Shown here one piece after another: positions 18,648-37,068 of a stretch of 64,000 nt of DNA. Both the position numbers and the translations under genes were made by a program. Position 1 is the stretch's first letter, and every line of letters starts with the position of its first letter. Source of the stretch: an uncultured Candidatus Binatia bacterium (GTDB lineage: Bacteria; Desulfobacterota; Binatia; UBA9968; JAJDTQ01); NCBI GenBank assembly GCA_965204205.1, contig OZ241976.1, forward strand, positions 2,922,322 through 2,986,321, given 5' to 3'. The notes beneath the pieces are model-generated. The model was not told where the DNA came from, did no database searches, and saw only the letters and a program-made list of their open reading frames with translations.

Positions 18648-19673
18648 ATGCAAGGCAACAAGGTCTGTATCCCGGCGCCGCACAAGCTGTCGGTGGGGCG
18701 GGACGTGCTGGAGGAGGCGGGGTGCGAGCTCGTGCTGGGGAAGGACCAGGACGAGTTCCCCAAGCACCGCTACTCCGACGACGAGCTGGTGGCGCTGATC
18801 GGCGACAGCGACGCCGTCTGGGCGGCGCAGCGGGACTTCATCAGCGGTGCGGTGCTGGCCCGCTGCCCCAAGCTTAGAGCGGTGATCAAGGCCGCCATCG
18901 GCTACGAGACCATCGACGTGGACGCAGCCACCGAGCTGGGCATCCTGGTGTGCAACAGCCCGGCGCGGGAGAACTTCACCGGCGTGGCCGAGGCCACGGT
19001 CGGGCTCATGTCCATGCTGTTCAAGCGGCTGGTGCACAACCAGCAGCTCCTGCGCGACGGCGGCTGGAAGCGCAACGAGCACCGCGGCAACCTGATGGTG
19101 GGCCGCACCGTCGGTATCGTCGGCGTCGGACGGGTGGGCAAGGAGGTGGCCAAGCGCCTCGGCCCCTGGGAGATGCGGCTCATCGGCTGCGACCCCTACA
19201 TCACGCAGGAGTCGGTGGAGCACCTGGGGGTGGAACTGGTGCCGCTGGACACGGTGCTCCGGGAATCCGACCTCGTGACCCTGCACACGCCCCTCACCGC
19301 GGAGACGCGCGGGCTCGTCACCCTGACCGAGCTGAAACAGATGAAGCCCACCGCCTACCTGGTGAACACGTGCCGCGGCGGCGTGGTCAAGCAGGAGGAC
19401 CTGGTGCAGGCCCTGAACGAGGGCATCATCGCCGGCGCGGCCGTGGACGTGTTCGAGGAAGAGCCGCTGCCCATGTCGGACCCCATCCGCGACGTGGACC
19501 CCGAGCGGCTGATCATGACGCCGCACATCATCGGCACCAACCCGCAGTCCCAGGTGTCCGGCGAGCGCATGGCCGCTCAGAGCATTCTCACGGTGCTGGC
19601 GGGCGAGGCGCCGGAGACCGTGGTGAACCCCGAGTGCGTAGACGCCTGGCGTGAACGGTTCGGCGCCCGTTGA
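18648..19673 (+). CDS. D-isomer-specific 2-hydroxyacid dehydrogenase (PGDH/GyaR-like)
   Basis: NAD-binding GxGxxG (VGIVGVGRVG) and catalytic R/E/H region (NTCRGGVV, MTPHIIG). Confidence 0.85.
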   Translation: MQGNKVCIPAPHKLSVGRDVLEEAGCELVLGKDQDEFPKHRYSDDELVALIGDSDAVWAAQRDFISGAVLARCPKLRAVIKAAIGYETIDVDAATELGILVCNSPARENFTGVAEATVGLMSMLFKRLVHNQQLLRDGGWKRNEHRGNLMVGRTVGIVGVGRVGKEVAKRLGPWEMRLIGCDPYITQESVEHLGVELVPLDTVLRESDLVTLHTPLTAETRGLVTLTELKQMKPTAYLVNTCRGGVVKQEDLVQALNEGIIAGAAVDVFEEEPLPMSDPIRDVDPERLIMTPHIIGTNPQSQVSGERMAAQSILTVLAGEAPETVVNPECVDAWRERFGAR

Positions 19674-19736
19674 CGGCCGGCCGGAACCTTGGGCACGGGG
19701 CTCCGGAGGGAAACCGTCTCTCCGGGGAACTAACGG

Positions 19737-19760
19737 TAGGGGCGACCGGCGGTCGCCCCT
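19737..19760. repeat. REP-like GC palindrome (AGGGGCGACC-GGC-GGTCGCCCCT)
   Basis: 10-bp perfect stem. Same motif occurs at 23149, 23211, 29403 and 37103. It lies 20 nt upstream of the crotonase start. Confidence 0.5.
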
Positions 19761-19780
19761 GAACGGATTGGAGGAAACCC

Positions 19781-20599
19781 GTGGCGGAAAAGGAATGCAT
19801 CATCGAGGACATCGACGAAGAAACCGGCATCGCCTGGATCACCCTCAACCGCCCGGAGCGAAAGAACGCGCTCAGCCGGAAGCTCCTTGCGGAGCTGGTG
19901 GACAGCCTCAAGGCCCTGTCGGTGAACGACAACATCCGCTGCATCGTCACCACCGGCGCCGGAGACGCCTACAGCTCGGGGCTGGACCTGTACGACCTGC
20001 GGGCGTCGTGGCAAGGCAAGCGCCGGCTCTACGAGGGCGGCTCGGCGCGGGAGATCGTCACGCTGCTGCGCCAGGCGCCCCAGGTCACCGTGGCCGCGGT
20101 CAACGGCTGGGCCCTGGGAGGCGGGCTGGTGCTGGTGAACGGCCATGACCTGGCCATCGCCGCGGACACGGCGCAGTTCGGCATGCCGGAGATCATCCGC
20201 GGGAGCTACGGCGCCACCGCCACGCCTACCCTCTTCCGGAGCGGCATTCCCTTCAAGAAGGCGTTCTACATCCAGCTCACCGGCGAGAACATCGCCGGGC
20301 CCGAAGCCGAGCGCCTGGGGCTGGTTTCCAAGACCGTGCCGGCGAAGGAGCTGATGCCGTTCGTCCGGGAGTTCGCCGCCACCATCGCCAGCCGCCACCC
20401 GGTGACCCTGGAACACGCCAAGATCGCCGCCTACACGTCCATGGACCTGGACAACAGCCGCGGGCTGCTGGTGGACGAGGTCATCTCCCACCGCATGCGC
20501 GTCTACATGAACCCGCTGAACGACGTCGAGGGATACCTCCAGTCGCAGAAGGGCGGCGGCAACGTCAAATACGAGAAGCCCGACGCCAAGAAGTCGTAG
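19781..20599 (+). CDS. enoyl-CoA hydratase/isomerase (crotonase) family protein
   Basis: Crotonase fold motifs: TGAGDAYSSGLDL, oxyanion-hole region NGWALGGG. Confidence 0.85.
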   Translation: MAEKECIIEDIDEETGIAWITLNRPERKNALSRKLLAELVDSLKALSVNDNIRCIVTTGAGDAYSSGLDLYDLRASWQGKRRLYEGGSAREIVTLLRQAPQVTVAAVNGWALGGGLVLVNGHDLAIAADTAQFGMPEIIRGSYGATATPTLFRSGIPFKKAFYIQLTGENIAGPEAERLGLVSKTVPAKELMPFVREFAATIASRHPVTLEHAKIAAYTSMDLDNSRGLLVDEVISHRMRVYMNPLNDVEGYLQSQKGGGNVKYEKPDAKKS

Positions 20600-20672
20600 G
20601 GGCGGGGTCCCAATCCCGCCCGAGTTCGCGTCGCGCTAACGGTCGATACAGGCCACGAGCGCCGGAGCCCTC

Positions 20673-23096
20673 ATGACCAAAGACGAACCGCAACGCCCCG
20701 ACGGCGCACCTCGACTCCTCGAGGGATACCGGGCCCTGGACCTCACCGACCGCAAGGGCCAACTGTGCGGCCGCTTCCTGGCCGACCTGGGCGTGGAGGT
20801 CGTCAAGATAGAGCCGCCCGGCGGCGACCCGATGCGGAGGGTTCCTCCCCTTGCCGGCGGCACCAGCCTCGTGTTCGCCCATCTCAACGCCAACAAGCGC
20901 ACGCTGGAGCTGGATCTTCAGCTTCAGGACCACCGCCACCGGTTGAAGGCGCTGGCCGGCGAGGCCGACATCCTCATCGAGAGCGGCGCGCCCGGATGGA
21001 TGGCCGCGATGGAATTGGACTACGACCGCCTCAGCGAGAACAACCCCGGTCTGATCATGGCGTCCATCACCGGCTTCGGCCAGTGGGGTCCCCACAGCGG
21101 CTTCGCCTACAACGACCTGGTGGTGTTCGCCATGTGCGGCCTGATGTCCATCTCCGGCGACCCGGACAGGCCGCCGTGCGCGCCGCCCGAGACCCAGGCA
21201 TACTACTTTGGGAGCCTGGTTGCCGCCCTCGGCATCGTGGCGGCGCTCCACCGCCGCGAGCGCACCGGCGCCGGCGACTGGATCGACGTCTCCATGCAGG
21301 AAGCGCTGGCCACCCAGGAGCACATGGTGCGGCTCTACGCCAACGAGCAGGAGATCCACACCCGCGCCGGCAGCCAGCACCAGCACGTGGCGCCCGCCAG
21401 GATCTTCCCCTGCCGGGACGGCTACGCCTACATGTACGTCAGCCGCCAGCACTGGAAGAAGTTCCTCGAGATCTGGCCCGACCACCCGAAGGAGTTCGAG
21501 GCGCCGGAGTACATGAACAACCTCTTCCGGCGCTCCCATGCCGACGTCATCAACCCGGCCGTGAGCGCCTTCACCCGGCGGCACACGGTGGAGGAGCTGA
21601 CCCGTCACCTGCAGTCCAACCACATCCCGTGCCTGCCGGTGAACCGGCCGCTGGGCTATCTCCGGGACCCGCACGTGGAGGGCCGGCATTTCGTCCAGGA
21701 GGTGACCTACCCGGACGGCGCCTCGCTGACCCAGCCGGCTCTTCCCTGCATCCTGAGCGGCACCAGGCCCCGGGTCACCGCTCCCGAAGCGGTTCCTCAA
21801 GGCTCTGGAGAGGTCTGGTCGTCGACAAGGAATCCCGGGCCGTCCGGCAACGGGGAACCGGCCGCTTCCGTCGAAGCCGGCGGGCAGGGGCTGCCGCTCC
21901 AGGGCATGCGGGTCCTGAGCTTCGACCACGTGCTGGCCGGTCCCTTCGGCATGATGATGCTGGCGGACCTGGGCGCGGAGGTCGTCAAGGTGGAATCGAG
22001 CAAGGGAGGCCTCGATCCCTTCCGTTTCTTCGGCACCGGCGACGATCCCAACGCGTCACCGCGCTTCCTGGAGTTCAACCGGAACAAGCGCTCCATCACG
22101 GTGAATCTCAAGCATCCCGAGGGGCCCGGCCTGATCCGGGAACTGGCTCAACACTGCGACCTGGTGCTGGACAACTTCGCGGTGCGGGTCATGCCGAAAC
22201 TGGGGCTCGACTATGACAGCCTGGTGGAGCACAAGCCGGACATCGTGACCATGCGGATGCCCGGACTGGGCACCACCGGCCCCAAGAAGGACTCCCTGAC
22301 CCTGGGCACCATCATCACCGCGTTCACCGGCTTCACCTCCCTGTGGAACGAATCCGCCGAGGTGGACCCGCCGGTGGGGTCGGGCACCGTGCTGCCGGAC
22401 TACGTGTCCGGGGTCATGGGCGCGATCCTGTCGGTGGCGGCCGCGCTCTACCGCCGGCGCACCGGCAAGGGGCTGGCCATGGACCTGGCCCAGGCGGAGG
22501 CGGCCGCCTTCCTCATCGGCGCCAGCATGATCCAGGCCGCCAGTACCGACACCGAGCCCGTTCCCGTGGGCAACCGCTCCCCGTACCACGCTCCCTGGGG
22601 CATTTACGCCTGCAAGGGCGACGACCGCTGGTGCGTCGTCGCCACCGAGGACGAGACTCAGTGGCGCAGCCTGGCGGCGGCCATCGAGCGGCCGGATCTG
22701 GTCGACGACGCGCGGTTCCGCGGTAGCGCGGACCGGCTCCGCAACCGCGAAGCGCTGGACGCCGTCCTAGAAGAATGGACGTGTGTCCATGACAACCATG
22801 AGGTCATGAGGCGGCTCCAGGAGGAAGGGGTCCCCTGCGGCGCGGTCCAGAACGGCGCCGATCTCGTGACCAACGACCCGCACCTCCAGACCCGGGGCTT
22901 TCTCGGCACCCACGACAACCCGCGCTTCGGGCGCATCACCCTGCCCTGCCTTCCCATCCGGTTCACGCGTTCCCCCGTGGAACAGGACTGGGCGTTCCCC
23001 GAGCTCGGACGGGACACGGACCGGACCCTGCGCGACATGCTCGGTTATGACGACGCGCGTATCCGGCGGCTGCGCGAGGACGGAGTGCTGGAGTAG
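20673..23096 (+). CDS. tandem-fused family III CoA-transferase (two CaiB/BaiF domains in one 807-aa polypeptide)
   Basis: Domain 1 begins RALDLTDRKGQLCGRFLADLGVEVVKIEPPGGDP. Domain 2 begins MRVLSFDHVLAGPFGMMMLADLGAEVVKVES. Both carry the family III N-terminal Rossmann-like signature, joined by a Gly/Ser/Pro-rich linker. Confidence 0.8.
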   Translation: MTKDEPQRPDGAPRLLEGYRALDLTDRKGQLCGRFLADLGVEVVKIEPPGGDPMRRVPPLAGGTSLVFAHLNANKRTLELDLQLQDHRHRLKALAGEADILIESGAPGWMAAMELDYDRLSENNPGLIMASITGFGQWGPHSGFAYNDLVVFAMCGLMSISGDPDRPPCAPPETQAYYFGSLVAALGIVAALHRRERTGAGDWIDVSMQEALATQEHMVRLYANEQEIHTRAGSQHQHVAPARIFPCRDGYAYMYVSRQHWKKFLEIWPDHPKEFEAPEYMNNLFRRSHADVINPAVSAFTRRHTVEELTRHLQSNHIPCLPVNRPLGYLRDPHVEGRHFVQEVTYPDGASLTQPALPCILSGTRPRVTAPEAVPQGSGEVWSSTRNPGPSGNGEPAASVEAGGQGLPLQGMRVLSFDHVLAGPFGMMMLADLGAEVVKVESSKGGLDPFRFFGTGDDPNASPRFLEFNRNKRSITVNLKHPEGPGLIRELAQHCDLVLDNFAVRVMPKLGLDYDSLVEHKPDIVTMRMPGLGTTGPKKDSLTLGTIITAFTGFTSLWNESAEVDPPVGSGTVLPDYVSGVMGAILSVAAALYRRRTGKGLAMDLAQAEAAAFLIGASMIQAASTDTEPVPVGNRSPYHAPWGIYACKGDDRWCVVATEDETQWRSLAAAIERPDLVDDARFRGSADRLRNREALDAVLEEWTCVHDNHEVMRRLQEEGVPCGAVQNGADLVTNDPHLQTRGFLGTHDNPRFGRITLPCLPIRFTRSPVEQDWAFPELGRDTDRTLRDMLGYDDARIRRLREDGVLE

Positions 23097-23148
23097 CGCG
23101 GCCCGCATCGCGAACTCGTCCTGTTCCGGAACTGTCTCGCAGTGAGGT

Positions 23149-23230
23149 TAGGGGCGACCGGCGGGTCGCCCCTACGGGATCACACCGCCGCGTAGCGGCA
23201 ACCGTAGAGGTGGCCGGCGGTCGCCCCTAC
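23149..23230. repeat. REP-like palindrome (full copy 23149-23175 plus half copy 23211-23230)
   Basis: TAGGGGCGACCGGCGGGTCGCCCCTAC is a perfect 27-bp palindrome. It sits between convergent genes and could act as a bidirectional terminator. Confidence 0.5.
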
Positions 23231-23248
23231 ACCGCAGCTCTTGGCGCT

Positions 23249-24025
23249 TCAGGGCTCGTAGGACAGGTTGGAACGGACCAGGTTGCTGATGCGCCGGTGC
23301 ATGGGGTTCTTGAGCTCTTCGCCGATGTGGGCCATGGCGCCCAGGGTGCGGCCGATGAGGGCGAAGGCCTTGGCCATCTGCCACTGGAGCCCCATGTCCG
23401 AAGCGATGGCGGCGATGGCGCCGGTGACGTTGATGGGCAGGCCCCGGTTGTAACGCGCCTCCGCGGCCTTCTTGATCTCTTCCAGGAGCTCGCAGTAGCG
23501 CCCGCGCACGCCGGTCTCGGCGGCGATCTCGTACAGCCGGTCGGCGCGGGGGTCGCCCTCGGAATGGGTGGCGTGGCCGATGCCGGCGATGCGCTGCTTG
23601 CGGGCGGCGTGGTCTTCCACCACCCCCTGGGCGGTGGCGGCCAGATCGGCGCCGTCGCTCTCCAGCGGCAGCGCGTCCTGCAGCATCTTGGCGCAGTACT
23701 CCGACGAGCCCAGGTGGACGCTGCCGGCCCCCAGCAGGGCGGCGGCCACCGCCCCCTGAATGGCCTCCGGCGCCGTCGACACCGTGAAGCGGGCGGCGAT
23801 GATGTTGCCCACCATGCCGTGCTCCACCAGCACGTTGAGCATGGCGTCGGTCATGCGCCCCTCGTCCTCGCTGGGAATCCGCCCCACCAGCATGAGGAAG
23901 GCCATCTGTCCGAAGCTGAGCTTGCCCAGGATGTCCTGGGTCAGGTCGATGTTGCGGACCAGCACCCGGTGCAGCTCGGCCTTGCCCAATCCGGTTACGA
24001 TCTTGGTCTTGTCTTCGCTCATCAA
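23249..24025 (-). CDS. citrate-synthase-fold protein, citryl-CoA lyase-like (short form)
   Basis: 258 aa. The IAGIGHATHSEGDPRA motif corresponds to the catalytic His/Asp segment (GHxVxxxxDPRA) of the citrate synthase / ATP-citrate lyase C-terminal domain. It lacks the large N-terminal part of true citrate synthases. Confidence 0.6.
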   Translation of the reverse strand: MMSEDKTKIVTGLGKAELHRVLVRNIDLTQDILGKLSFGQMAFLMLVGRIPSEDEGRMTDAMLNVLVEHGMVGNIIAARFTVSTAPEAIQGAVAAALLGAGSVHLGSSEYCAKMLQDALPLESDGADLAATAQGVVEDHAARKQRIAGIGHATHSEGDPRADRLYEIAAETGVRGRYCELLEEIKKAAEARYNRGLPINVTGAIAAIASDMGLQWQMAKAFALIGRTLGAMAHIGEELKNPMHRRISNLVRSNLSYEP

Positions 24026-24106
24026 GGTCTCCTTGCGGCCTGGCGTCAGGCCCTTGTCGGATTACGCTTCACTGATCCGACGTACACTTTTCTCCGGAAG
24101 CCGCGC

Positions 24107-26332
24107 TCACACGTCGATGCGGGTGTCCCAGAGGATCGGATCGCCGCCCATGGGCGGGCAGAACAGATCCACTTGCAACTGCACCTGGCAGCCCGGACAA
24201 CTGTACTCATGGTACTCGCCGATGTAGGGCTCGCCAGACGGCAACGCGTCCTCCATGTAGTCGTTCAGGTCCAGGATGCGGCGCAGCGCGTAGTTCTTGT
24301 AGTTCTCCTCGGCGCCGCAGTAGAGGTGGCCGCATTGGACGCAGCGGATGGCGTGTTGACCGTTTCGGCGGGCGATCTCGAGGCTCGCGTGGAAGCGCAG
24401 CACCGATTCGTACTCCCCCGCCTGCGCCGGGTCCAGCGCCGAGGTCTTCCCCGAGGGCGGCTCCCCGAGTTGTTTGCGCCCGGCGCGGATGCGCTCCCGC
24501 AGGCTCTGAGTGGCGGCCTCGTCCACGGAACGGCCGTCCCGGGCCAGCACCACGCCGTACACCTCCTCGCCGATCTTGGGGGTGAGCCAGCCGCGGCCGA
24601 AATCCCGCAACACCAGCGCGGGGTCACGTTCCAGCGGGTCCCCGAAACCGCCGCCCCCGGCCACGTAATCGATGAGGAGGCTCCCTTCCGGCAGCGCCAC
24701 GCGTTCCGGAACCCCGTCGGGATGGACCACCCGGCCCCAGGTGCCGTCGCGCATGCCGGCGCCGTCCGGGTACTCGCCCTGCCGGACCCGGTCCAGCAAC
24801 TCCATGCCCGCGTCCACCATGTAGCGCAGCACGCTCTTGCCGGTGGGGTAGCCGCCGCACAGGCCGTAACCGCCCTGGGCCACGCCGCCGTAGGGCTTGT
24901 AGTCCACGCTGCAGTCCTGGGAGCCGTAGATCCAGTAGACGCGGTAGCTGCCGAGGCCGCCGCGGTACTGGCCGAAGCCGCTGCCGTCGGGGTTGTGGCC
25001 ACGGGTGAAGTAGAGGAACGGGTACTGCATCTCGATGCGCTCGATGTCGCTGATGCCGGCGGAGGGAATGTTCATGTGGCCGCCGGTGTTGACGCCGTCC
25101 CGCAAGGGGGCGCCGCCCATGCCGGCGCCGTGGATGTCGTAGAGTCCCTGGGCCACGCGGATGCCGTCCCGGGTGTGGCCGCCGTAGAAGTAGCCGGGTC
25201 CGCCGGCGTAGGCCAGGTTGCCGGTGGTGGAGGCGTTGACGTCCTCGGCCCGTCCCGCCGCGTAGAGCATCTTGGAGACGCACTCGCAGATGGTGGAGAC
25301 CAGCACGTTGCCCACCCGCGGCGCGGCGCCGCAGGCCGCCGGGAAAGTGCAGTTCAGGATGGTGCCCTCGGGTATCTTGAGGGTCACCGGCTTCATCTTG
25401 CCGTCACTCCAGGGCACGTCCCAGAAGAGCGCGTTGGTGAGCGCCAGGGTGATGTGCGCGGCGGTGCTGGGAAAGGTGGAGTTGTGGTCGGTGTCGGTCT
25501 GCGGGCTGGTCCCCTCCAGGTCGAACTCCAGCTCGTCGCCCTTCTTGGTCATGGTGCAGTAGAGCTGCTGGGCCACGGCCTTGCGCGACTTGCGGTCCAG
25601 GGTAGTGACGTACTCCCGGGACACCCAGGTGCCGTCGGGCAGCGAGCGCAGCTTGGCGCGGGCCTTGGCCTCCGAGTCCTCGATCATGCGCCGGCCGGCA
25701 GCCTCGACGAACTCCGGACCGAACTTCTCCACCAGCCCGAGGTAGCGGTCGGCGCAGACGTTGTTGCCGGCGATCATGGCCTTCATGTCCAGGCCCACGT
25801 ACTGCGGGTCCCGGCACATGCCGGTGAGGGTGCGGAAAACGTCCTCGCGGAACTCGCCCTTCTCCACGATCTTGAGGCCGCTGATGCAGATGCCCTCGTG
25901 GAAGATCTCCAGCGCGCCTCCGCGCAACACCCCGCCGGTGTCGGCGGTGTGGGTGCTGGTGGCGGTCCAGGCGATCAGCTCGCCGTCGTAGAAGATGGGC
26001 TTGATGACCATCATGTCGTAGGTATGGGAGCCCGCCACGTAGGGGTCGTTGAAGAAGAACTGGTCGCCGTCGTAGAAGCCGGGCGACTCCTTGAAGTACT
26101 CCATCATGTTCTTGATGGCCTGGGAAGTGGCCGCGGCGAACCGCAGGTGGCCGGAGCACGCCAGCACCATGACGCCCTCGGTGTCGTAGAACGAGCTCAT
26201 GCACTCGCCGCCCTGGGCGACGATGGGAGAGGCGGTGACGCGCTGCAGCGTCATGCGGCCCTCTTCGCCGATCGCCCAGAGCCGGTGGAAGTACATTTCG
26301 TATTTTATAGGATCAACCGCTGTCGGTTCCAT
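24107..26332 (-). CDS. hydantoinase B / oxoprolinase family protein (acetone-carboxylase alpha-like), C-terminal Cys4 motif
   Basis: 741 aa HyuB-fold. The C-terminal CVQCGHLYC ... CPGCQ pair of CxxC motifs resembles the Zn site of acetone/acetophenone carboxylase alpha subunits. Confidence 0.8.
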   Translation of the reverse strand: MEPTAVDPIKYEMYFHRLWAIGEEGRMTLQRVTASPIVAQGGECMSSFYDTEGVMVLACSGHLRFAAATSQAIKNMMEYFKESPGFYDGDQFFFNDPYVAGSHTYDMMVIKPIFYDGELIAWTATSTHTADTGGVLRGGALEIFHEGICISGLKIVEKGEFREDVFRTLTGMCRDPQYVGLDMKAMIAGNNVCADRYLGLVEKFGPEFVEAAGRRMIEDSEAKARAKLRSLPDGTWVSREYVTTLDRKSRKAVAQQLYCTMTKKGDELEFDLEGTSPQTDTDHNSTFPSTAAHITLALTNALFWDVPWSDGKMKPVTLKIPEGTILNCTFPAACGAAPRVGNVLVSTICECVSKMLYAAGRAEDVNASTTGNLAYAGGPGYFYGGHTRDGIRVAQGLYDIHGAGMGGAPLRDGVNTGGHMNIPSAGISDIERIEMQYPFLYFTRGHNPDGSGFGQYRGGLGSYRVYWIYGSQDCSVDYKPYGGVAQGGYGLCGGYPTGKSVLRYMVDAGMELLDRVRQGEYPDGAGMRDGTWGRVVHPDGVPERVALPEGSLLIDYVAGGGGFGDPLERDPALVLRDFGRGWLTPKIGEEVYGVVLARDGRSVDEAATQSLRERIRAGRKQLGEPPSGKTSALDPAQAGEYESVLRFHASLEIARRNGQHAIRCVQCGHLYCGAEENYKNYALRRILDLNDYMEDALPSGEPYIGEYHEYSCPGCQVQLQVDLFCPPMGGDPILWDTRIDV

Positions 26333-26340
26333 CGAAGTCT

Positions 26341-26452
26341 CCTGAAATGCCGTCCTTCGACTTCGCTCGGCTTCGCCTCGCTACGCTCGGGACGAACGGT
26401 TGTGAATCCCATTTCCGCTCGTCCCGAGCGTAGCGAGGTCTGCCGAGCGAAG
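26341..26452. repeat. nested inverted-repeat intergenic element, copy B (inside the hyuA-hyuB operon spacer)
   Basis: Outer arms GTCCTTCGACTTCGC / GCGAAGTCGAAGGAC. Inner arms CGCTACGCTCGGGACGAACGG / CCGCTCGTCCCGAGCGTAGCG. Confidence 0.6.
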
Positions 26453-26481
26453 TCGAAGGACGCTTCAATTGATCTTGACTC

Positions 26482-29402: not shown

Positions 29403-29426
29403 AGGGCGACCGCCGGTCGCCCCTAC
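29403..29426. repeat. REP-like palindrome copy
   Basis: AGGGCGACCGCCGGTCGCCCCTAC between the SDR start and the UbiD stop. Confidence 0.5.
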
Positions 29427-29470
29427 CGGGCTCCGCCTCGATCCAGTTCCAAATGACGCCGGTCAGGCTC

Positions 29471-30855
29471 CTAGAGGAAATCCTCCAGTCGCACCCGGCC
29501 CGCGCCCATGGGCTGCAGGCGCTCGAACTCGAACCGTCGCGCCGGGTCGCACTCCGGCGGCTTGGTGGCGTCGATCATCACCTTGCCGCCGAGGCGGTGC
29601 CAGCCCGGCGCCCCGGGAGCCCCCACCTCCGTGCACGACGGGTCCATGGCGTGGATCTTGGCGCCGGGAATGGTGATGATGTCCTCGGCCGGGTTGACGC
29701 GCGTGGAAACGGCCCAGAGCACGTCGGCGTAGTTGAAGATGTCCACGTCCTCGTCCACGGCGATGGCCACCTTGGGATGCTGGTACTCGCTGGACAACGC
29801 GGCCATGAGCACGTTCCGGGCCTCGCCGTAGTAGCGGGGGTTCATCTGCACCACGAGGCCGAAGATGCCCGGCAGCACCAGCACGTTCTTCACCTGGGCG
29901 CCGCCGCCGACGCTCCGTACCCGCCGGAGGATCTGCGCCGACATCGGCACCTTGTGGTAGACGCAGCCCTCCACCTCGGCGCCGTTCTGGATGTTCTTGA
30001 AGATGGCATCGCCGCGCATGGTGACGGCGTTGACCTGGAACACGGGGTTCTGCCCGGCTCCCGCCAGGTAGTAGTCCTGGAACTCGCTGAAGGGGCCCTC
30101 CTCCTCGCGCACGTGGGGCAGGATCTCGCCTTCCAGCACCACCTCCGCCTGGGCCGGCACCTCCATGTCGATGGTCTCGCACTTCACCATCTCCACCTCT
30201 TCCTGCAGCAGCCCCGAGGCGATGGTCAGCTCGTCCCGGCCGTAGTCCGTGGTGGTGGCGGCGGCGAAGTAATACATGGGATGGTGGCCGATCATGAAGG
30301 CCACCGGCATGCCCTCGCCCTTGGACTCGTGTTTCTGGTAGTTGGCCCAGCCGTGGCGCGGGTAGAGCAGGATGCCGGTCTTGCGGGGTCCCTTCATCTG
30401 CAGGCGGTGGAAGCTCAGGTTGCGGTTGCCGGTGTCCGGGTCCTTGGAGATCATGAGCCCCGCGGAGATGAAGGGGCCGCCGTCGCGGATGCCGCACTGG
30501 TGGATCGGCAGCTTCGTGATGTCCACCTCGTCTTCCTTGAGCACGCGCTCCTTGACGGGGCCGGAAGACACGATGCGGGTGGTGCCGGCGGTCTGGGTGC
30601 GCCGCACGAACTCCGGCACCATCTCGTTGCGGTCAACGCCGAAGGCCAGCGGCGCCAAGCGCACGTCGCCGGGCGCCTGGCCGAGGCAGCGCCAGCCCGG
30701 GAAGCCGTCGAGGTTCTCGAACAAGAGCGCCCGCTCCCGGGACTGCCACAACAGCGCCCCCATCTGCGTCCGCGGGTCCACCGGCTTGGAGATGGTGTCA
30801 AGCACACCGGCGCCCCGCAACTGGTCGATCCAGGTGCGTATATCCTTTTTCATTT
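29471..30855 (-). CDS. UbiD-family (prFMN-dependent) reversible decarboxylase
   Basis: Start at MKKDIRTWIDQLRGAGVLDTISKPVDP (rc cat 30853-30855). UbiD N-terminal and central domains. No ubiX-like gene in the window. Confidence 0.8.
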
Positions 30856-30926
30856 GCCGTTTCGCCGTTCGGAGGTCATCGCCGCCCGGCGCGTGGAGAA
30901 CGCCGGGCGGCAACGGGGTTGGACTG

Positions 30927-32027
30927 CTATTTCTTGCGGGCCAGCAGCGCGGGGATGTACTCGTTCTTGAGGTAGTCCCATCCCGGCGAAGGCTTGAGCA
31001 TGCCCTCGGTGATCTTGTCCGCATCGGGACCCTTGATGTAGTCGAGCTTCAGCCCGAAGATCCTCTCCCACTCCTTCACGTAGGCGGGATCGGAGTACAT
31101 CTTGTCGAAGGCCGCCCGGATGGTTGCCACGCGGTCCGCCGGCGTTCCCGGAGGCACCACCAGGGTACGGTTGAGGGTCCGCATCGTGGGACCGGTAAGC
31201 CTGTACGCCTCCCACGCCGGACCCGAGGGGGCCTTGCCCTTCACCTTTTTGTAGACCTCCTCGAAGGTGGGTATGTCCGTACCCGGGGAACGGATGACCT
31301 TTCCCTCGGGGGTCAACACGCCGCCCTGCCAGATGACGATGGCCACACCCTCCTGGATAGGCCCGTAGTAACGTCCGCTGGTCCCGAGCACGTGATGCAG
31401 CCCGGTGCCGCCGACGTAGGAGACCTCACCCGACAGGAAAGCCAAAGCCATCTGGGCGGTTCCGGGGTACCCCACCGCGAAGCCGTAGCCCTTGATGCCC
31501 AGCAGGTCGAGGCCGATCACGTCGTTGAGGAAAGACGGTCCGTTGATGGAGCGTCCGGAAACCGCGATCTTCGTGGGATCGATCTTGGTCAGTTCGACGC
31601 CGGTCTTGACCTTGAGGAAGTCCCGGACGATGGCCGCGGAGGCGCCGCTGGTAGAGAAAATCGCCGGCATCTTCGCCAGGTCGAAGTTGGGCTTGGGTTC
31701 TTTCATCACCTGGTTACCCAGGTGGGACGAGCCCATAATGGACCAGGTAAGGCCGTCCTTGCTGGCCTTATGGTGGGTGTAGGCGCCGTGAATCAGGCCG
31801 GCCGCCCCGGGCATGTTGATCTTGACCACCTTCGACGGCTTGCCGGGAAGGTACTTGCCGATCCACCGGCCGATGAGCCGGCCTTCGGTATCGTGCCCGC
31901 CGCCGGGTGAATAGCCCGACAGGATCTGGATTCTCTTGCCTTCGGTGAAGGCGTGCGCCGAGCCCAAGGCGAGAATCCCCAGTAACGCACAGCCCACGAA
32001 CAACAACGACACTCTGCGTATGGTCAT
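30927..32027 (-). CDS. tctC: tripartite tricarboxylate transporter substrate-binding protein (TctC/Bug family)
   Basis: Signal peptide MTIRRVSLLFVGCALLGILALGSAHA. Bug-family fold motifs (PGGGHD, NMPGAAG). Confidence 0.8.
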   Translation of the reverse strand: MTIRRVSLLFVGCALLGILALGSAHAFTEGKRIQILSGYSPGGGHDTEGRLIGRWIGKYLPGKPSKVVKINMPGAAGLIHGAYTHHKASKDGLTWSIMGSSHLGNQVMKEPKPNFDLAKMPAIFSTSGASAAIVRDFLKVKTGVELTKIDPTKIAVSGRSINGPSFLNDVIGLDLLGIKGYGFAVGYPGTAQMALAFLSGEVSYVGGTGLHHVLGTSGRYYGPIQEGVAIVIWQGGVLTPEGKVIRSPGTDIPTFEEVYKKVKGKAPSGPAWEAYRLTGPTMRTLNRTLVVPPGTPADRVATIRAAFDKMYSDPAYVKEWERIFGLKLDYIKGPDADKITEGMLKPSPGWDYLKNEYIPALLARKK

Positions 32028-32079
32028 GAGACTTCTCCCTTCCGGGACGGGGCGTGATGCCCCGCCCCCTGCCCGAATG

Positions 32080-33162
32080 CTACTTGGTGCCGACGAACTT
32101 GCGGAGATGGGCCTGCCACTCGGCGGGCGCCATGGTCTCGTCGCGAATCTTGGTGGCAGCCTCCGGCGACACAAGCACTGGAGCGAGCTTCTGGCCGAAG
32201 ACCCTCTCCCAGTCCTTGATGAACCCCGGGTCCTTGGCCATCTTCCCGATCGCCTCGCGCAACTCCCCGACCTTGGCCCCGGCGATGCCCGGCGGCAAGA
32301 CCAAGGTACGTGTCAGATTCGAAATGCCGAGCCCGATGGCGCGCCACGCCTCCCAATCGGGCCCCGAAGGCTCCTTCTTGTGGACGGCCTTGTACACCTC
32401 GTACAGCGTGGGGACGTCCCCCTTTACCGTGGCGGACCGCGCGATGGAACCATCGCCCTTCAGGATGCCGCTCTGGTACATCGGGAACACCAGGCCCCGC
32501 TTGTGCAGGTCCACAAAGGCGCCGCCGCCCACCAGATGGGCGTCGCTGGCCACGAAGTAGCTCACCTCGCTCCGTTCCATTGCGGCCCTGATGGGCGACG
32601 TTCCCCCATAAGCGCAAACCGCCGTGTACTTCTGGATGCCCAGGAGGCGCAGCGCCAACTGTCCGCGCAGGCACGAGGAGCCCTGCTTGGAGCGCCCGGC
32701 AACGACGATCTTCGAGCGGTCGACCTTGGTCAGGAGATCATTGGCGTTTTTCGCCCCCAGGAAGTCCCTTGTCAAATGGACCTGGATGCCGGCAACGGAC
32801 CAGATGATCGGCATCTTCAGAAGGTCGTACTTGACCATCTCCGGCGGCGCCAGCACTGCCTGCATTCCATGGCTGCTGCCGAAAAGGCCGATGGTGTTCC
32901 CGTCCGGCTTGGCTCGGTTGTAGACGTAGGACGACATGATCATGCCGCCGGCTCCGGGCATATTCTGGACAAGGACCTTCGGGTTCCCGGCCAGGTACTT
33001 GCCGAGGTACCGCCCCATGACGCGCGCCTCGATATCATGGCCTCCGCCGGGCGGATAGCCGATCAGAATAGTCACGTTCTTGGCCGCCGCCGTCGTCGCC
33101 AAAACGGTGAACAGCAGCAGGAAAAACAGGGTGCACCAACTCGCCGCTCGCGATCGCTTCAT
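32080..33162 (-). CDS. tctC: second TctC/Bug-family periplasmic substrate-binding protein
   Basis: Signal peptide MKRSRAASWCTLFFLLLFTVLATTAAA. Same conserved motifs (PPGGGHD, NMPGAGG). Paralog of the adjacent tctC. Confidence 0.8.
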   Translation of the reverse strand: MKRSRAASWCTLFFLLLFTVLATTAAAKNVTILIGYPPGGGHDIEARVMGRYLGKYLAGNPKVLVQNMPGAGGMIMSSYVYNRAKPDGNTIGLFGSSHGMQAVLAPPEMVKYDLLKMPIIWSVAGIQVHLTRDFLGAKNANDLLTKVDRSKIVVAGRSKQGSSCLRGQLALRLLGIQKYTAVCAYGGTSPIRAAMERSEVSYFVASDAHLVGGGAFVDLHKRGLVFPMYQSGILKGDGSIARSATVKGDVPTLYEVYKAVHKKEPSGPDWEAWRAIGLGISNLTRTLVLPPGIAGAKVGELREAIGKMAKDPGFIKDWERVFGQKLAPVLVSPEAATKIRDETMAPAEWQAHLRKFVGTK

Positions 33163-33363
33163 TATCCGTTTACCTCCTGTGCAATGGCGACGTGCCATTG
33201 GACGAAACCCTCGGGCACACAAAGCCCTGGAACGCAAACGGGCCGAGGACTCAGTACACCGAGATCCTCAGCCCGTCTGTGGTTGACGGCCGCTCCTTGC
33301 GGAACCGACCTACGTCGGAAGCGTCGCCGGGGCGAACCCAGCGGCGCTCCTTCCGCACGAAAC

Positions 33364-33762
33364 CTATTTCTTCTTCGGCGCGGGTATGGTCAGCTTCGCC
33401 TTTGCCAGCGTGTTGCCATCCCCGTCCACCAGCATGACCTCGTGGTCGCCGGGCTTCAGCAGGCGCTTGATGGTCCGTCCCCGGATACCCCAGGTGGTGG
33501 AGACCATGCCCTTGTCGTCCGCCTTCTCGACGGCAGGCTTCGCGAGGAAGCTCACGTCCGACAGGACGCCGCCCATCATGGTCCGGATGCCCACCTCTTG
33601 GCCGGCCTTCAGCCCTTCCGCTGAGATCTTGACCTGCAGCCGGCCCTTCTTCGTTCCGCCCACGTCCACCATGAGCTTGGGACCCATAGCCATCGCGATG
33701 GACGACATCAGGAACAACGCTCCCAGGGCCGCTGCCAAACCGATTAGACTTTTCCTTGCCAT
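33364..33762 (-). CDS. small secreted protein of unknown function embedded in the tct locus
   Basis: 132 aa with cleavable signal peptide (MARKSLIGLAAALGALFLMSSIAMA), a beta-rich body, and a Lys-rich tail. No family recognised. Confidence 0.4.
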   Translation of the reverse strand: MARKSLIGLAAALGALFLMSSIAMAMGPKLMVDVGGTKKGRLQVKISAEGLKAGQEVGIRTMMGGVLSDVSFLAKPAVEKADDKGMVSTTWGIRGRTIKRLLKPGDHEVMLVDGDGNTLAKAKLTIPAPKKK

Positions 33763-33870
33763 ACGTTACCTCCCTTGTGGTTATTGTTCCGCCGATCCAG
33801 ACGGCTCCCTTTATACGTAAGCCTTGCGGCAAATGTCAAGGGGCCTGTCGACCGAAATTTTACCCCGCCA

Positions 33871-34407
33871 TCAAATGGGGACGAGGCTCGACAAGTACCA
33901 TTCCACCAGTCCCAGAATGAACTCCTGCGGCCCGTTGATCAAGCCCGGAGGCCACGGGATGTGCAGCACCATCTCGAACACCCCGATCATGAATATCATC
34001 ATGACCACCATGTAGGTCACCGCGACCTTCCACGTCTCGCCCGCCTGCAGGCCCAGGTAAAGGAGCAGGAAGAGCGGCACGCTCAGGATGAAGCCGATGA
34101 TCCAGATGGACAGGTAGAGGCCGAAGATCCACGCGAAGATATTGATGGCGCGCTGGATCACCACGGCCACCGGAACGCTGCGGTCCACCGGCAGGTCCAT
34201 CATGCCGGCGACGTCCTCGTCGCTGTCCTTCGCGCGGAACAGGTCCAGCCCCAACTGCAGGAAGCACAGCACCATGGTGGGGATCCCGATGGTCCAGGGA
34301 AACAGCCGCGCCTGGTATTGCCACTGCTTTGCCGTCGCCACCAGCCCGATCATCAGCAGCAGCACGAAAACGGTGAACAGTGCACCGGGGTTGGCCTTAA
34401 GCTTCAT
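33871..34407 (-). CDS. tctB: tripartite tricarboxylate transporter small membrane subunit TctB
   Basis: 178 aa, 4-5 TM helices, immediately upstream of and overlapping tctA. Confidence 0.65.
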   Translation of the reverse strand: MKLKANPGALFTVFVLLLMIGLVATAKQWQYQARLFPWTIGIPTMVLCFLQLGLDLFRAKDSDEDVAGMMDLPVDRSVPVAVVIQRAINIFAWIFGLYLSIWIIGFILSVPLFLLLYLGLQAGETWKVAVTYMVVMMIFMIGVFEMVLHIPWPPGLINGPQEFILGLVEWYLSSLVPI

Positions 34408-35929
34408 CCACGCCCTCGCTTTGTTCGCGCTCGATCCGGGTGTCGCGCATCTGCTGCAGCTCCTGCTGCTTGCGGGCGTTGCGAATGCCGTAGTACAGGC
34501 TGGCGACGATGAGCACCATCACGATCATGACGATGGGACGCAGCATCCACGTGGCGCCGTAGCGGCTGATGGAGATGAAGAGGTAGTTCTCGATGATGCC
34601 GCTCAGCACCAGCCCCAGGATCAGCGGCGGCCGCGGCCAACTGAACCGCTTCATGAACCAGCCGAGCACCGAGAAGAACAGCAGCGACCACAGGTCCCCG
34701 TAGTGCCGCGTGGCCTGGAACGAGGCCAGGAAGACGATGACCACCACCAGCGGCGTCAGCAGGTTGATCCGCACCATGGCGATCTTGGCCAGGGTGTTGG
34801 TCAGCAGCATGCACATGACGGTGCCGAAGATGTTGGCGATGGCCAGGCTCCAGATCATCGTGTAGGTGACCGCGAGGTCCTTGGTGAGCATGGCCGAGCC
34901 GGGGGTCAGCCCCTGGATGGTCATGGCCCCGAGCAGCAACGCCATGGAGGCGCTTCCCGGCACGCCGAAGGCGATGGTGGGGATGAGGGCGCCACCCTCC
35001 TTGGCGTTGTTGGCCGCTTCGGGTGCCAGCACCCCACGCACGTCGCCGGTGCCGAAGGTCTCGTTGGCCCCCTTCTCGGTCTGAATGGCGTGACCGTAGG
35101 CGAACCAGTCCACCACCGAGGCGCCGAGCCCGGGGATGGCGCCCACGAAGACGCCGACGACGCCGCAGCGCAGCACCAGGAACCAGTTGCGGAAGGTGTC
35201 CCGGATCCCCACCATCACCCCCCGCAGCCTTTCCTTGGGCACGTCCGCGATACGCGTTCCGCGGATGGTCAGGTCGACGATCTCGGGGATGGCGAAGATG
35301 CCCAGCGCCACCGGGACCAGGGGAACGCCGTCCCAGAGGTAAAGCTGGCCGAACACCCAGCGGAGCACGCCTGTCTGGGGGTCCATGCCCACCATGCCCA
35401 CGCACAGGCCGATAGCCCCGGCGATGAGCCCCTTCACCGGCGCGTTGCCGCTCAGGACGGCGACCATGGAGATGCCCAGGAGCCCCAGCATGAAGAACTC
35501 GGGGGAGCCGAACGCGAGCACGATGGGACGCAGCACCGGGATCGAAAGCGCGAGAATCAGCGACCCGAACACGCCCCCCAGGAGCGAGGCCATGTAGGCG
35601 CCGCCGAAGGCCCTTCCGGCCTCGCCCTTCTTGGCCATGGGATGGCCGTCGAGAATGGTGGCCTGGGACGCGGAGGTGCCGGGAACGCCGAAGAGAACCG
35701 AGGGAATCGTGTCCGAGGTGCTCGTCACCGAGATCAGCCCGATCATGATGGCGAACGCCTCGAAGGAGTCCATGTCGAAGGTGAAGGGCAGCAGGATGGC
35801 AAGACCGACGAGGCCCCCCAGGCCGGGTATCGCGCCCAGGGCCAGCCCCATGAACACGCCGATGAACAGGTACAACAGCCGGGTCGGAACCAGGAGGTTC
35901 TCAATCGCCAGGGTGGCGGCTTCCAGCAT
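34397..35929 (-). CDS. tctA: tripartite tricarboxylate transporter large permease TctA
   Basis: About 510 aa polytopic membrane protein with TctA-family repeats. Start at MLEAATLAIENLL (rc cat 35927-35929). Confidence 0.85.
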   Translation of the reverse strand: MLEAATLAIENLLVPTRLLYLFIGVFMGLALGAIPGLGGLVGLAILLPFTFDMDSFEAFAIMIGLISVTSTSDTIPSVLFGVPGTSASQATILDGHPMAKKGEAGRAFGGAYMASLLGGVFGSLILALSIPVLRPIVLAFGSPEFFMLGLLGISMVAVLSGNAPVKGLIAGAIGLCVGMVGMDPQTGVLRWVFGQLYLWDGVPLVPVALGIFAIPEIVDLTIRGTRIADVPKERLRGVMVGIRDTFRNWFLVLRCGVVGVFVGAIPGLGASVVDWFAYGHAIQTEKGANETFGTGDVRGVLAPEAANNAKEGGALIPTIAFGVPGSASMALLLGAMTIQGLTPGSAMLTKDLAVTYTMIWSLAIANIFGTVMCMLLTNTLAKIAMVRINLLTPLVVVIVFLASFQATRHYGDLWSLLFFSVLGWFMKRFSWPRPPLILGLVLSGIIENYLFISISRYGATWMLRPIVMIVMVLIVASLYYGIRNARKQQELQQMRDTRIEREQSEGVDEA

Positions 35930-36159
35930 ACGGACTCCCTTCTGCCCCCTTCGGAAAATCCACAGGGATATATCGAGGTCTGTGAAGACTGTCAAGGCAA
36001 CGCGTTCCGGCGGAGGCGCGCTCGCGGAACCGGCTCCCGTTGCGGGTTACGAGGAAAAGGACTAGTACGACGATATCGTGTGTCGCGAGCTCGGGTAAAC
36101 CGCCCGCGCGGACGGGTTCGCGAGGGCGAACCTCTCACCTCCCGGAAAGGACCGTCACC

Positions 36160-37068
36160 ATGGGAAATCTCGGCATCTGCTTCGTCAATCCGGCCCCGCA
36201 CATCGAACCGGGTTACGTCACGGACATGGCGCGGAAGTGCGACCAGGCCGGCTTGCACTCGTTCTGGACCATCGATCGCATCGCCTATGACAACCTGGAA
36301 GCGCTGACCGTGCTGGCGGCCGCGGCTGCCGCCACCGAGCGCATCCGGCTGGGAACGTCGGTGCTGCTGTCGGCGCTGCGCCACCCCGCGCTGCTGGCCA
36401 AGACCGTGGCCACCATCGACTTCCTGTCCAACGGCAGGATGACCCTGGGCATCGGCTTCGGCAGCCGGGAGAGCGACTTCACCTCCGTGGAGGTGCCCTG
36501 GGAGCACCGCGGGAGCCGCGCCGAGGAGTCTCTGGCGCTCATGAAGCGGCTCTGGACCGAGGAGGAAGTGGAGCACCACGGCCGGTTCTTCGACCTCCAC
36601 AGCACCCGCTTCGGGCCGGCGACCGTGCAGTCGCCCCACCCTCCCATCTGGATGGGCGGCGGCGCCGAACCCGTCCTGAAGCGCGTGGGGCGGTACGCCG
36701 ACGGCTACATCTGCGGCAGCAACGCGGTGCACGACTTCGATGCGGTGTGGGAGAAGATCAGCGGCCATGCCCGGGCCGCGGGCAGGAATCCGGACGACAT
36801 CGAGAAGGCCGGGCTCACGTTCATCGCCATCGACGACGACAAGGGCAAGGCGGTGGAGGCGTGCGAGAACTACCTCATCCGCTACTACGGCAAGGTCCGC
36901 ATGGACGTGGAAAAGTACATGCTGGTGGGCAGCGCCGACGCGTGCGCCGACGGCATCAACCGGATCTTCTCGGGCGGACTGCAGACGCTGATCATTGGCC
37001 TGGCCATCTCCGACCTGGCGCAACTGGATACGTTCGCGGAGAAGGTGCTGCCGCAGGTGCAGGGGTAG
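36160..37068 (+). CDS. LLM-class (luciferase-like) flavin/F420-dependent oxidoreductase
   Basis: TIM-barrel LLM motifs (HSFWTIDRIAYDNLE, MTLGIGFGS). Start at MGNLGICF (atg 36160). Confidence 0.8.
   Translation: MGNLGICFVNPAPHIEPGYVTDMARKCDQAGLHSFWTIDRIAYDNLEALTVLAAAAAATERIRLGTSVLLSALRHPALLAKTVATIDFLSNGRMTLGIGFGSRESDFTSVEVPWEHRGSRAEESLALMKRLWTEEEVEHHGRFFDLHSTRFGPATVQSPHPPIWMGGGAEPVLKRVGRYADGYICGSNAVHDFDAVWEKISGHARAAGRNPDDIEKAGLTFIAIDDDKGKAVEACENYLIRYYGKVRMDVEKYMLVGSADACADGINRIFSGGLQTLIIGLAISDLAQLDTFAEKVLPQVQG

Follow-up and report, generated by a model that had tools for sequence, protein, structure and literature searches.

Introduction

Does a run of neighbouring catabolic genes that matches no described pathway encode one new pathway, or several units that share an address? 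The question is raised by an 18-kb block (positions 18,648 to 37,068) within a 64,000-nucleotide stretch of DNA, hereafter the window, from an uncultured Candidatus Binatia bacterium (assembly GCA_965204205.1, contig OZ241976.1, positions 2,922,322 to 2,986,321). The block holds 15 genes, among them those for a tripartite tricarboxylate transporter (TTT), a UbiD-family decarboxylase, a HyuA/HyuB enzyme, a CoA-transferase and a protein resembling citryl-CoA lyase. An original prediction, made from the sequence of this one genome, took them for an accessory island with a single non-canonical pathway and no regulator of its own.

Comparison with related Binatia loci leads us to a different answer. 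The block is probably one stable carboxylate-uptake and decarboxylase operon, then a zone of interchangeable cassettes, and not one new pathway. On the best reading, the cassettes are neighbours, with no obligatory link among themselves or to the transporter/decarboxylase unit.

Gene Content of the Block

Genes were picked by third-position GC (the window is ~66% GC) and then checked against Pfam and NCBIfam, which recovered every family that had been listed for the block. A plus-strand trio (a 2-hydroxyacid dehydrogenase, a crotonase and a family III CoA-transferase) converges on a ten-gene minus-strand run consisting of TctA, TctB, a 132-residue secreted protein, two periplasmic binding proteins (SBP1 and SBP2), UbiD, a short-chain dehydrogenase/reductase (SDR), HyuA, HyuB and a citrate-synthase-fold protein. 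The open reading frames of TctA, HyuA, UbiD, the LLM-class oxidoreductase upstream of TctA, and leuD were over-extended at their 5' ends.

The claim that this gene set fits no described pathway stands: none of the block proteins reaches the NCBIfam equivalog cut-off for a named enzyme, and the literature on Binatia and UbiD, on UbiD and TTT systems, and on citryl-CoA lyase with family III transferases yielded no described pathway with this combination. The absence of a regulator holds as well. No DNA-binding domain was matched in any of the 15 block proteins, and an Rfam scan of the whole window gave zero matches, so no riboswitch stands in for the missing regulator.

A Conserved Core Operon and a Variable Zone

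We compared the block with 28 loci whose UbiD is at least 90% identical, 25 of which extend at least 6.8 kb downstream of UbiD. These loci span 10 kb on each side of UbiD, and a cassette scored as absent could sit elsewhere in the genome. In every locus compared, the genes for TctA, TctB, the small secreted protein, SBP1, SBP2 and UbiD are co-linear and uninterrupted. Downstream of UbiD the SDR is present in 24 of the 25 loci, missing only in L014, while HyuA and a HyuB with a fused gamma-like domain (HyuB-gamma) occur in 16 and the citryl-CoA-lyase-like (CCL-like) gene in 18. Nucleotide alignments place all breakpoints between units, and none within the six-gene core or the HyuA/HyuB pair. 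The core operon adjoins leuCD in the 28 related loci, with two insertion-bearing exceptions, and patchiness is confined to the sub-cassettes.

The rearrangements are of several kinds. HyuAB is cleanly deleted in L009, whose SDR stop codon runs straight into the CCL leader, and was deleted independently in L011, where about the first 25 codons of HyuA remain; in these two and in seven other loci the SDR stays beside UbiD where HyuAB is gone. Insertions of 0.3–4.2 kb separate the SDR from HyuA in nine of the 11 HyuAB-containing relatives examined, and unrelated transporter genes follow the SDR in seven loci. In L014 (positions 11475-15759) a SLOG/LOG-like gene, a UbiD paralogue of 29% identity, a LytB-family gene and an AAA/DUF4143 ATPase take the place of the SDR. 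A 3-kb segment encoding an ABC binding protein and permease lies between the CCL-like and CoA-transferase genes in six relatives (L006, L009, L011, L013, L024 and L026), and in L019 the CCL-like gene is followed by the 2-hydroxyacid dehydrogenase and then lexA, the CoA-transferase and crotonase being absent. On the other side of the core, ~4.8 kb is inserted between the LLM gene and TctA in L023 and L026. For these two loci we considered and rejected a translocation of the whole TctA-to-CCL run, because L026 retains an LLM fragment that marks an insertion.

Because the TctA-to-UbiD segment is uninterrupted in all relatives while the downstream units vary independently, the block is better described as modular than as a single pathway. 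Neighbourhood comparison, proposed at the outset as a check on co-occurrence, thus gave a divided result: TctA to UbiD always stay together and the SDR nearly always joins them, but the cassettes beyond are gained, lost and separated independently in the 25 related Binatia genomes, which does not support the equation of one island with one pathway. The outcome named in advance as fatal to that equation was separate, individually known operons with independent promoters; separable units and a conserved TctA promoter are what the alignments reveal, but the units are not individually known.

Island status fared no better. GC content is 0.62–0.69 within the block and 0.62–0.68 in its flanks, giving a flat profile, and no integrase or transposase was found among the window genes scanned; tRNA or direct-repeat borders were not looked for. 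With flat GC and no mobility genes, the block is not recognisable as an island by composition or mechanism. The exact HyuB sequence is not on record, and the origin was traced through homologues: UbiD is 97–98% identical to genes on complete Candidatus Binatia chromosomes assembled from metagenomes. Complete Binatia chromosomes that came up in the analysis include OY761465, OZ220712, OY762897, OZ243984 and OZ219754.

One of the larger insertions carries genes of its own. At positions 12446-15914 of L001, a 4-kb insertion between the SDR and HyuA holds three genes with one weak BrxC/BrxD match, and may be defence-related; L023 has an insertion of similar size.

The Transporter and Its Binding Proteins

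The conserved unit and the SDR that usually accompanies it comprise the following features.

35968..35995, minus strand: sigma-70-type promoter of the TctA operon (TTGACA, ~17 nt, TATAT)
34397..35929, minus strand: TctA, large membrane subunit of the TTT (PF01970, 426 bits)
33871..34407, minus strand: TctB, small membrane subunit (PF07331, 35 bits against a cut-off of 29.1)
33364..33762, minus strand: small secreted all-beta protein of 132 residues with a signal peptide, between TctB and SBP1
32080..33162, minus strand: SBP1, divergent TctC/Bug-type periplasmic binding protein (by profile and fold)
30927..32027, minus strand: SBP2, paralogue of SBP1 (39% identity by alignment)
29471..30853, minus strand: UbiD-family decarboxylase of the type dependent on prenylated flavin mononucleotide (prFMN), HmfF cluster (UbiD_N, UbiD and UbiD_C domains)
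28628..29368, minus strand: classical SDR oxidoreductase (adh_short matches)

The promoter surfaced solely through comparative alignment, a consensus terminator and promoter scan having given nothing beyond shuffled background. In all 26 aligned LLM/TctA intergenic sequences (the window and 25 relatives) TTGACA-N17-TATAT and a downstream ribosome-binding site are kept, and besides that site and the start codon the promoter is the sole block at least 90% conserved. The ribosome-binding site and ATG conserved in relatives set the true TctA start at 35929; the apparent TTG start at 35995 is the promoter's -35 box.

TctA and TctB are encoded together, overlapping by 11 nt, and each exceeds its Pfam cut-off, which upholds the view that a TTT system here points to a carboxylate substrate. 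The claim of two TctC proteins needs more care. The Pfam TctC threshold is not reached (SBP1 scores 18 bits against a cut-off of 27, and the other binding protein has no match), but a profile of the binding-protein family searched against the PDB matches only Bug/TctC chains (E ~1e-15), and many homologues carry a Bug/TctC annotation. An AlphaFold2 (AF2) model of SBP1 has a predicted local distance difference test (pLDDT) score of 90, and its top 17 Foldseek matches are all TctC-family proteins, including MatC, the terephthalate binders TBP and TphC, BugD, BugE, Bug27 and AdpC. By profile and predicted fold, SBP1 and SBP2 are members of the TTT binding-protein family despite their sub-threshold Pfam scores. 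SBP2 is conserved in all relatives at 80–91% identity.

Compared with characterised systems such as TphC/TBP with TpiAB in Comamonas and Ideonella, BugD, BugE, MatC and AdpC, the window operon is alike in possessing TctA and TctB and in the binding-protein fold (template modelling score ~0.76–0.80, target-normalised). It differs in that its binding proteins are only 17–22% identical to those proteins and ~30–60 residues longer than the crystallised TTT binding proteins, and in having two binding-protein paralogues, possibly with two ligand specificities, and an extra small periplasmic beta protein. The latter always lies between TctB and SBP1 and is found in 28 of 28 clade loci at 61–96% identity. 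Its best Pfam match (E 0.0011) is well under the family cut-off and NCBIfam gives none; a single-sequence AF2 model has eight strands (pLDDT 65), and a fold search returned only weak beta-sandwich matches (RhoGDI, FN3) with E above 1e-3.

The UbiD Decarboxylase and a Candidate Route

The UbiD protein scores 283 bits against TIGR00148 (cut-off 245), and its nearest structure is PtHmfF (6H6V), with a full-length, co-linear alignment that scores 263 bits (40% identity across 438 columns). Other solved relatives score lower: VdcC 159, AroY 152, UbiD 139, Fdc1 118 and phthaloyl-CoA decarboxylase (Pcd) 94 bits. The EGPFxE motif and upstream N/H/R residues, which we take to be catalytic from what is known of Fdc1 and UbiD, are invariant in 18 UbiD homologues and align with PtHmfF. 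The window protein shares with HmfF this motif and the three-domain architecture, and JGI automatic annotation gives the HmfF name to many of its homologues. It differs at residues ~293–305 (EVEGCVYHKVPM against REHLLLGGIAR) and in its surroundings, which lack the hmf partners: there is no HmfG/UbiX and there are no hmfABCDE furoyl-CoA genes.

The reported lack of ubiX was borne out within the DNA covered, though the negative is weak. No Flavoprotein-family (UbiX-type) gene occurs among 46 window genes scanned, and a tblastn search of the window and the fetched loci, including those with several UbiD genes, gave no match, with an E. coli UbiX query and no positive control. The maker of the prFMN cofactor, UbiX, may be encoded elsewhere in the genome.

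More distant homologues extend the picture unevenly. In a second Binatia clade (UbiD at 78% identity) the order is leuC-leuD-UbiD-CCL-like-Amidohydro_2, which looks like the same backbone minus the transporter and SDR/HyuAB segments. On inspection of their context, UbiD homologues of 75–79% identity mostly stand alone among unrelated neighbours (Tectomicrobia, Zixibacteria, Rhodospirillales), which provide no functional clue. By contrast, a UbiD orthologue of 60–63% identity sits beside TctA and TctC in two metagenome-assembled genomes (MAGs) of low-GC anaerobes, L072 (43% GC) and L076 (Syntrophales); this independent recurrence is the best evidence that the UbiD-TTT pairing is functional.

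Two further observations concern these homologues. The neighbourhoods in L072 (1301-20281) and L076 (1842-14380) hold two TTT systems, two to three tungsten-type aldehyde:ferredoxin oxidoreductases, an Fe-alcohol dehydrogenase, an Amidohydro_2 protein and UbiD paralogues. The usual role of aldehyde:ferredoxin oxidoreductases is the reduction of aromatic acids, and the neighbourhood looks like an acid-to-aldehyde-to-alcohol module for such acids. Separately, loci L035-L071, L086 and L087 carry UbiD at 75–79% identity across MAGs labelled Binatia, Eisenbacteria, Zixibacteria, Tectomicrobia and Chloroflexota, and so steady an identity amid unrelated contexts suggests strong constraint, frequent transfer, or both.

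We hypothesize that the core would work as follows: in the periplasm the two binding proteins would pick up a carboxylate, or two related ones, TctAB would carry out the import, the prFMN-dependent UbiD would remove a ring-attached or conjugated carboxyl group, and the SDR would carry out the subsequent redox step. By analogy, the substrate is most likely a di- or mono-carboxylate of aromatic or heteroaromatic type, for three reasons: the clade to which this UbiD belongs, the resemblance of the binding proteins to those that bind terephthalate, and the aldehyde:ferredoxin oxidoreductases beside the orthologues in anaerobes. The substrate class rests on family precedent, HmfF acting on furandicarboxylate and TphC/TBP binding terephthalate.

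The Downstream Cassettes

Beyond the SDR lie three units that come and go in relatives. The HyuA/HyuB pair is encoded by two genes.

26482..28590, minus strand: HyuA, ATP-binding subunit of acetone/acetophenone-carboxylase or lactamase type (Hydant_A_N, Hydantoinase_A and Hydant_A_C)
24107..26332, minus strand: HyuB with a fused acetone-carboxylase gamma-like Cys4 domain (PF02538 and PF08882)

HyuA starts at 28590 once corrected from relatives (28617 in the over-extended frame) and carries PF01968, PF05378 and PF19278. HyuB (741 residues) ends in an Acetone_carb_G domain (PF08882, residues 650-741, E 1.2e-6) with a CxxC...CxxC pattern of cysteines at 664/667 and 712/715; the statement that no acetone-carboxylase gamma subunit is present therefore does not hold, the gamma domain being fused to the HyuB C-terminus. 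In the PDB, HyuB residues 5-625 are best matched by the delta subunit of acetophenone carboxylase and the alpha subunit of acetone carboxylase, while lactamase B subunits align only to about residue 465. Those B subunits are 560–590 residues long and lack the gamma module (PMC8453981).

Scores for both named enzyme types are too low: ApcD 231 against 1500, ApcC 463 against 1500 and ApcA 308 against 1250 for acetophenone carboxylase (Apc), and CapA 524 against 1000 and CapB 167 against 1000 for caprolactamase. The window pair has in common with acetone carboxylase (Acx, alpha-beta-gamma) and Apc a HyuA-type subunit, a HyuB-type subunit and a Cys-rich gamma module. Unlike Acx it has gamma fused to HyuB and not as a separate gene, and unlike Apc it has neither an epsilon subunit nor a second alpha subunit; HyuA also scores slightly higher against caprolactamase alpha than against its Apc counterpart (524 and 463 bits). 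The low lactamase scores, together with a B subunit of 741 residues bearing a gamma domain, depart from the lactamase type, and domain composition makes a ketone-type carboxylase the more likely of the two. The HyuB-gamma fusion is widespread, with hundreds of uncharacterised family members, and HyuA with HyuB-gamma forms a frequent, self-contained two-gene unit found at ~75% identity in Binatia, Eisenbacteria and Pseudolabrys. In three contigs it has unrelated neighbours: NMT1-type binding proteins, an LLM protein, Amidohydro_2 and a thiolase/DUF35 pair.

The last gene of the minus-strand run faces the plus-strand trio.

23249..24025, minus strand: citrate-synthase-fold CCL-like protein of 258 residues (PF00285, NF004868)
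20673..23096, plus strand: tandem-fused family III CoA-transferase of 807 residues (two CoA_transf_3 stretches)
19781..20599, plus strand: crotonase-fold protein with a single catalytic Glu, as in p-hydroxycinnamoyl-CoA hydratase/lyase (HCHL) (ECH_1 match)
18648..19673, plus strand: D-isomer-specific 2-hydroxyacid dehydrogenase (PF02826, PF00389)

The CCL-like protein scores 282 bits against NF004868 (cut-off 193) and 134 bits against the Hydrogenobacter citryl-CoA lyase 6HXP. With that enzyme and the ATP-citrate lyase domain it has in common the same truncated citrate-synthase fold of ~260 residues, and it keeps the His residues of VEHG and GIGH and the Arg residues of DPR and IGR. It differs in having Thr in place of the catalytic Asp: the motif reads NVTG, against NVDG in 6HXP and NVE/NVD in two aligned citrate synthases. 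This Asp (Asp375 in pig citrate synthase) acts on the acetyl methyl group. It is also named as the catalytic residue in bioRxiv 10.1101/2024.11.06.622199. NVTG is found in 23 of 23 CCL-like orthologues, including those only 62–69% identical, and Thr occupies the position in every NF004868 member examined. Since the exchange deprives the protein of the general base that canonically serves Claisen and retro-Claisen reactions, it is probably not a citryl-CoA lyase, and the NF004868 family name is probably wrong.

In the CoA-transferase the N-terminal half matches subunit A and the C-terminal half subunit B of the benzylsuccinate CoA-transferase BbsEF (9FN0), with a best score of 181 bits. The window protein differs from BbsEF in fusing both subunits in one 807-residue chain, and identity is only moderate. 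The C-terminal half keeps the catalytic Asp, aligned with that of SUGCT and BbsF; a half-against-half alignment places Ala at this position in the N-terminal half (20673-21875), and each fused chain is probably a pseudo-heterodimer in which a single site is active. Fusions of ~800 residues are common in metagenomes, accounting for nearly all of the top 150 cluster representatives.

The best NCBIfam match of the crotonase is HCHL, at 163 bits against a cut-off of 276, and HCHL is among its best PDB matches. Aligned with 5ZAI and HCHL 6L3O, it has GGGLV where the canonical motif is GGGLE and HCHL has GGGFS; like HCHL it lacks the first catalytic Glu (here Val) and keeps the second (MPEI), and so does not show the two Glu (GGGxE ... 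PE) of a canonical enoyl-CoA hydratase. The 2-hydroxyacid dehydrogenase is under all equivalog cut-offs. In sequence terms the plus-strand trio looks like a module for CoA activation of a 2-hydroxyacid or dicarboxylate with a hydratase-lyase-type crotonase. The proposal that transferase, hydratase and lyase would activate, hydrate and cleave one unsaturated acid is weakened by a lyase without its Asp, a hydratase without one Glu, and the 3-kb ABC segment that separates lyase from transferase in six relatives.

Weighing the Alternatives

Several points count against a core operon with interchangeable cassettes. TctA to the CCL-like gene lie on one strand in the window and 15 relatives, with gaps of 10–200 nt and no convincing intrinsic terminator, and read-through co-transcription of the ten minus-strand genes is possible in this genome. 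HyuAB and the CCL-like gene look ancestral in the clade and may once have worked with the core; the L011 deletion scar marks a loss, not a recent gain, of HyuAB. The adjacency of UbiD and the CCL-like gene in the second Binatia clade could reflect function rather than inherited order. The TTT link is not universal, the 75–79% identical UbiD homologues being mostly stand-alone, and the absence of a cassette was judged only within 10 kb on each side of UbiD. In the lineage of the window an undescribed route is conceivable: the TctA-to-CCL run would import an aromatic dicarboxylate by the TTT, decarboxylate it by UbiD, re-functionalise it by the SDR and the gamma-fused ketone-carboxylase-type enzyme, and use the CCL-like protein for a new reaction not on citryl-CoA, the deletions in relatives being pathway decay. 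We consider this improbable. The broader original proposal joins all 15 genes in one undescribed pathway that would take up a di- or tricarboxylate, decarboxylate it, use ATP to carboxylate it or open a ring, activate it with CoA, hydrate it and cleave a C-C bond. In its favour the genes adjoin one another with short gaps, ten lie in a single same-strand run, the set matches no known pathway, and the full arrangement recurs in relatives such as L007, L012, L021 and L027-L029; yet units are lost or separated independently, composition and mobility genes give no signature, the HyuAB pair is portable alone, and the lyase, the hydratase and half of the transferase lack catalytic residues. It is rather unlikely, in our estimate.

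Routes modelled on known pathways fare less well still. A route like the lower ethylbenzene pathway, parallel to Ped, Apc and Bal in Aromatoleum, would take the UbiD product to a secondary alcohol, oxidise it to a ketone by the SDR, carboxylate this to a beta-keto acid by HyuA/HyuB-gamma, activate it by the CoA-transferase and cleave it. The SDR-HyuA spacing of ~37 nt in the window and L007, the carboxylase-like alignment and gamma-like Zn domain of HyuB, and the nearness of the crotonase to HCHL are consistent with such a route. The SDR, however, remains with UbiD after HyuAB is deleted and is parted from HyuA by insertions in nine of the 11 HyuAB-containing relatives examined, the Apc equivalog scores are far too low, and no hydratase is present for the step from decarboxylation product to alcohol; we give this route only a slim chance. 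The family name of the TTT and the CCL-like annotation invite a tricarboxylate route instead, with TctABC importing citrate or aconitate, UbiD making an itaconate-like product from an aconitate-like acid, the CoA-transferase, hydratase and lyase degrading it, and a LeuCD-like dehydratase perhaps supplying the unsaturated acid. Acrylic-type acids are substrates of UbiD enzymes, and the archaeal mevalonate route couples UbiD to an aconitase-type dehydratase; these precedents, with the leuCD-UbiD-CCL adjacency in the second Binatia clade, lend the idea some appeal. The UbiD, though, groups with HmfF and not with Fdc-type acrylic-acid decarboxylases (263 and 118 bits), the CCL-like protein lacks its catalytic Asp, and the binding proteins are far from canonical TctC. 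Moreover, leuC and leuD exceed the NCBIfam equivalog cut-offs for isopropylmalate isomerase and sit in a leuA-leuB-asd-truA-leuCD cluster; by sequence they are the housekeeping leucine pair, and a LeuCD-like dehydratase feeding UbiD in the archaeal manner was rejected on these grounds. The tricarboxylate route as a whole is highly improbable. Least credible of all, to the point of near-dismissal, is an anaerobic phthalate-type system, also part of the original prediction, in which a family III CoA-transferase would make an aryl-dicarboxyl-CoA for UbiD to decarboxylate. In its favour, the block encodes both families, with a fused transferase similar to the heteromeric BbsEF and other dicarboxylate CoA-transferases of that kind, and TTT proteins related to terephthalate binders; but UbiD scores far lower against Pcd than against HmfF, no ubiX-like gene was found (in a search without a positive control), and the transferase belongs to a separate transcription unit on the opposite strand, up to six genes away, and is absent in L019 where UbiD is kept.

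Genomic Setting and Repeats

To the right of the block lie leuD, leuC, truA, asd, leuB and leuA, next pssA/psd, and farther out frr, tsf, uppS and ribF. To the left are an enolase-superfamily gene, a cupin, a nitrilase-family gene and lexA-imuA-imuB-dnaE2. The last is an SOS mutagenesis cassette at 8496-14412, encoding LexA, a protein without Pfam match, an IMS-family protein and a second DNA polymerase III alpha. The cassette directly adjoins the 2-hydroxyacid dehydrogenase gene in L019. The rightmost gene of the block is the following.

36160..37068, plus strand: LLM-class oxidoreductase, divergent from TctA (PF00296)

It scores 187.5 bits against TIGR03619, an F420-dependent LLM subfamily (cut-off 166.9), a match that hints at F420 use in this Binatia lineage.

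The window holds three palindromic repeat families, two of which have members inside the block; strand does not apply to the copies listed.

19739..19759: REP-like palindrome copy 1, in the 2-hydroxyacid dehydrogenase/crotonase gap
23151..23227: REP-like palindrome copies 2 and 3, in the convergent CoA-transferase/CCL gap
29403..29423: REP-like palindrome copy 4, in the UbiD/SDR gap
26343..26470: palindromic repeat forming a near-perfect hairpin of ~125 nt, between HyuA and HyuB-gamma

The first, resembling repetitive extragenic palindromic (REP) elements, has the form GGGGCGACC-GGC-GGTCGCCCC and occurs at 19739, 23151 (a variant with a 4-nt loop), 23207 and 29403, with five matches over both strands against 0.1 expected by chance. 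Within the window it is confined to the block, as had been noted; it is not, however, the only palindromic family, nor the only one inside the block. Relatives carry one or two copies at other positions. The CoA-transferase/CCL gap folds with z ~-3 on either strand, and the palindrome, which has no U-tract, looks like a REP-type element and not an intrinsic terminator.

The hairpin between HyuA and HyuB-gamma (-102.6 kcal/mol, z = -13.9) has the family core GCGAAGCGAAGTCGAAGG, with related copies at 17109-17257 and 39401-39458; it separates the genes of two subunits of one enzyme. A further repeat resembles miniature inverted-repeat transposable elements (MITEs), with ~163-nt copies bounded by terminal inverted repeats of 35–40 nt at 37797-37959, 45708-45873 and 62876-63041 (82–89% identity). 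Relatives L007 and L009 lack, at the same junction, the copy that lies between leuC and leuD, and further MITE-like copies lie in the variable zone of L017 and L020.

Implications for Binatia and the Families Involved

What looked like a 15-gene pathway from adjacency in one genome shrinks, on comparison with 25 relatives, to six or seven genes that belong together. Some of the annotation issues met here reach beyond the window, namely the Thr of NF004868, the HyuB-gamma fusion family, and the CoA-transferases of 800 residues with apparently one active half. What remains is an uncharacterised but conventional TTT and UbiD catabolic operon beside a recombination-prone stretch of portable metabolic cassettes. 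HmfF-clade enzymes attract practical interest in the chemistry of furandicarboxylate and phthalate, and Binatia are a widespread uncultivated lineage of soils and sediments. In these bacteria a TTT importer with two unusual binding proteins and an HmfF-clade UbiD is a candidate system for the uptake and decarboxylation of aromatic or heteroaromatic acids.

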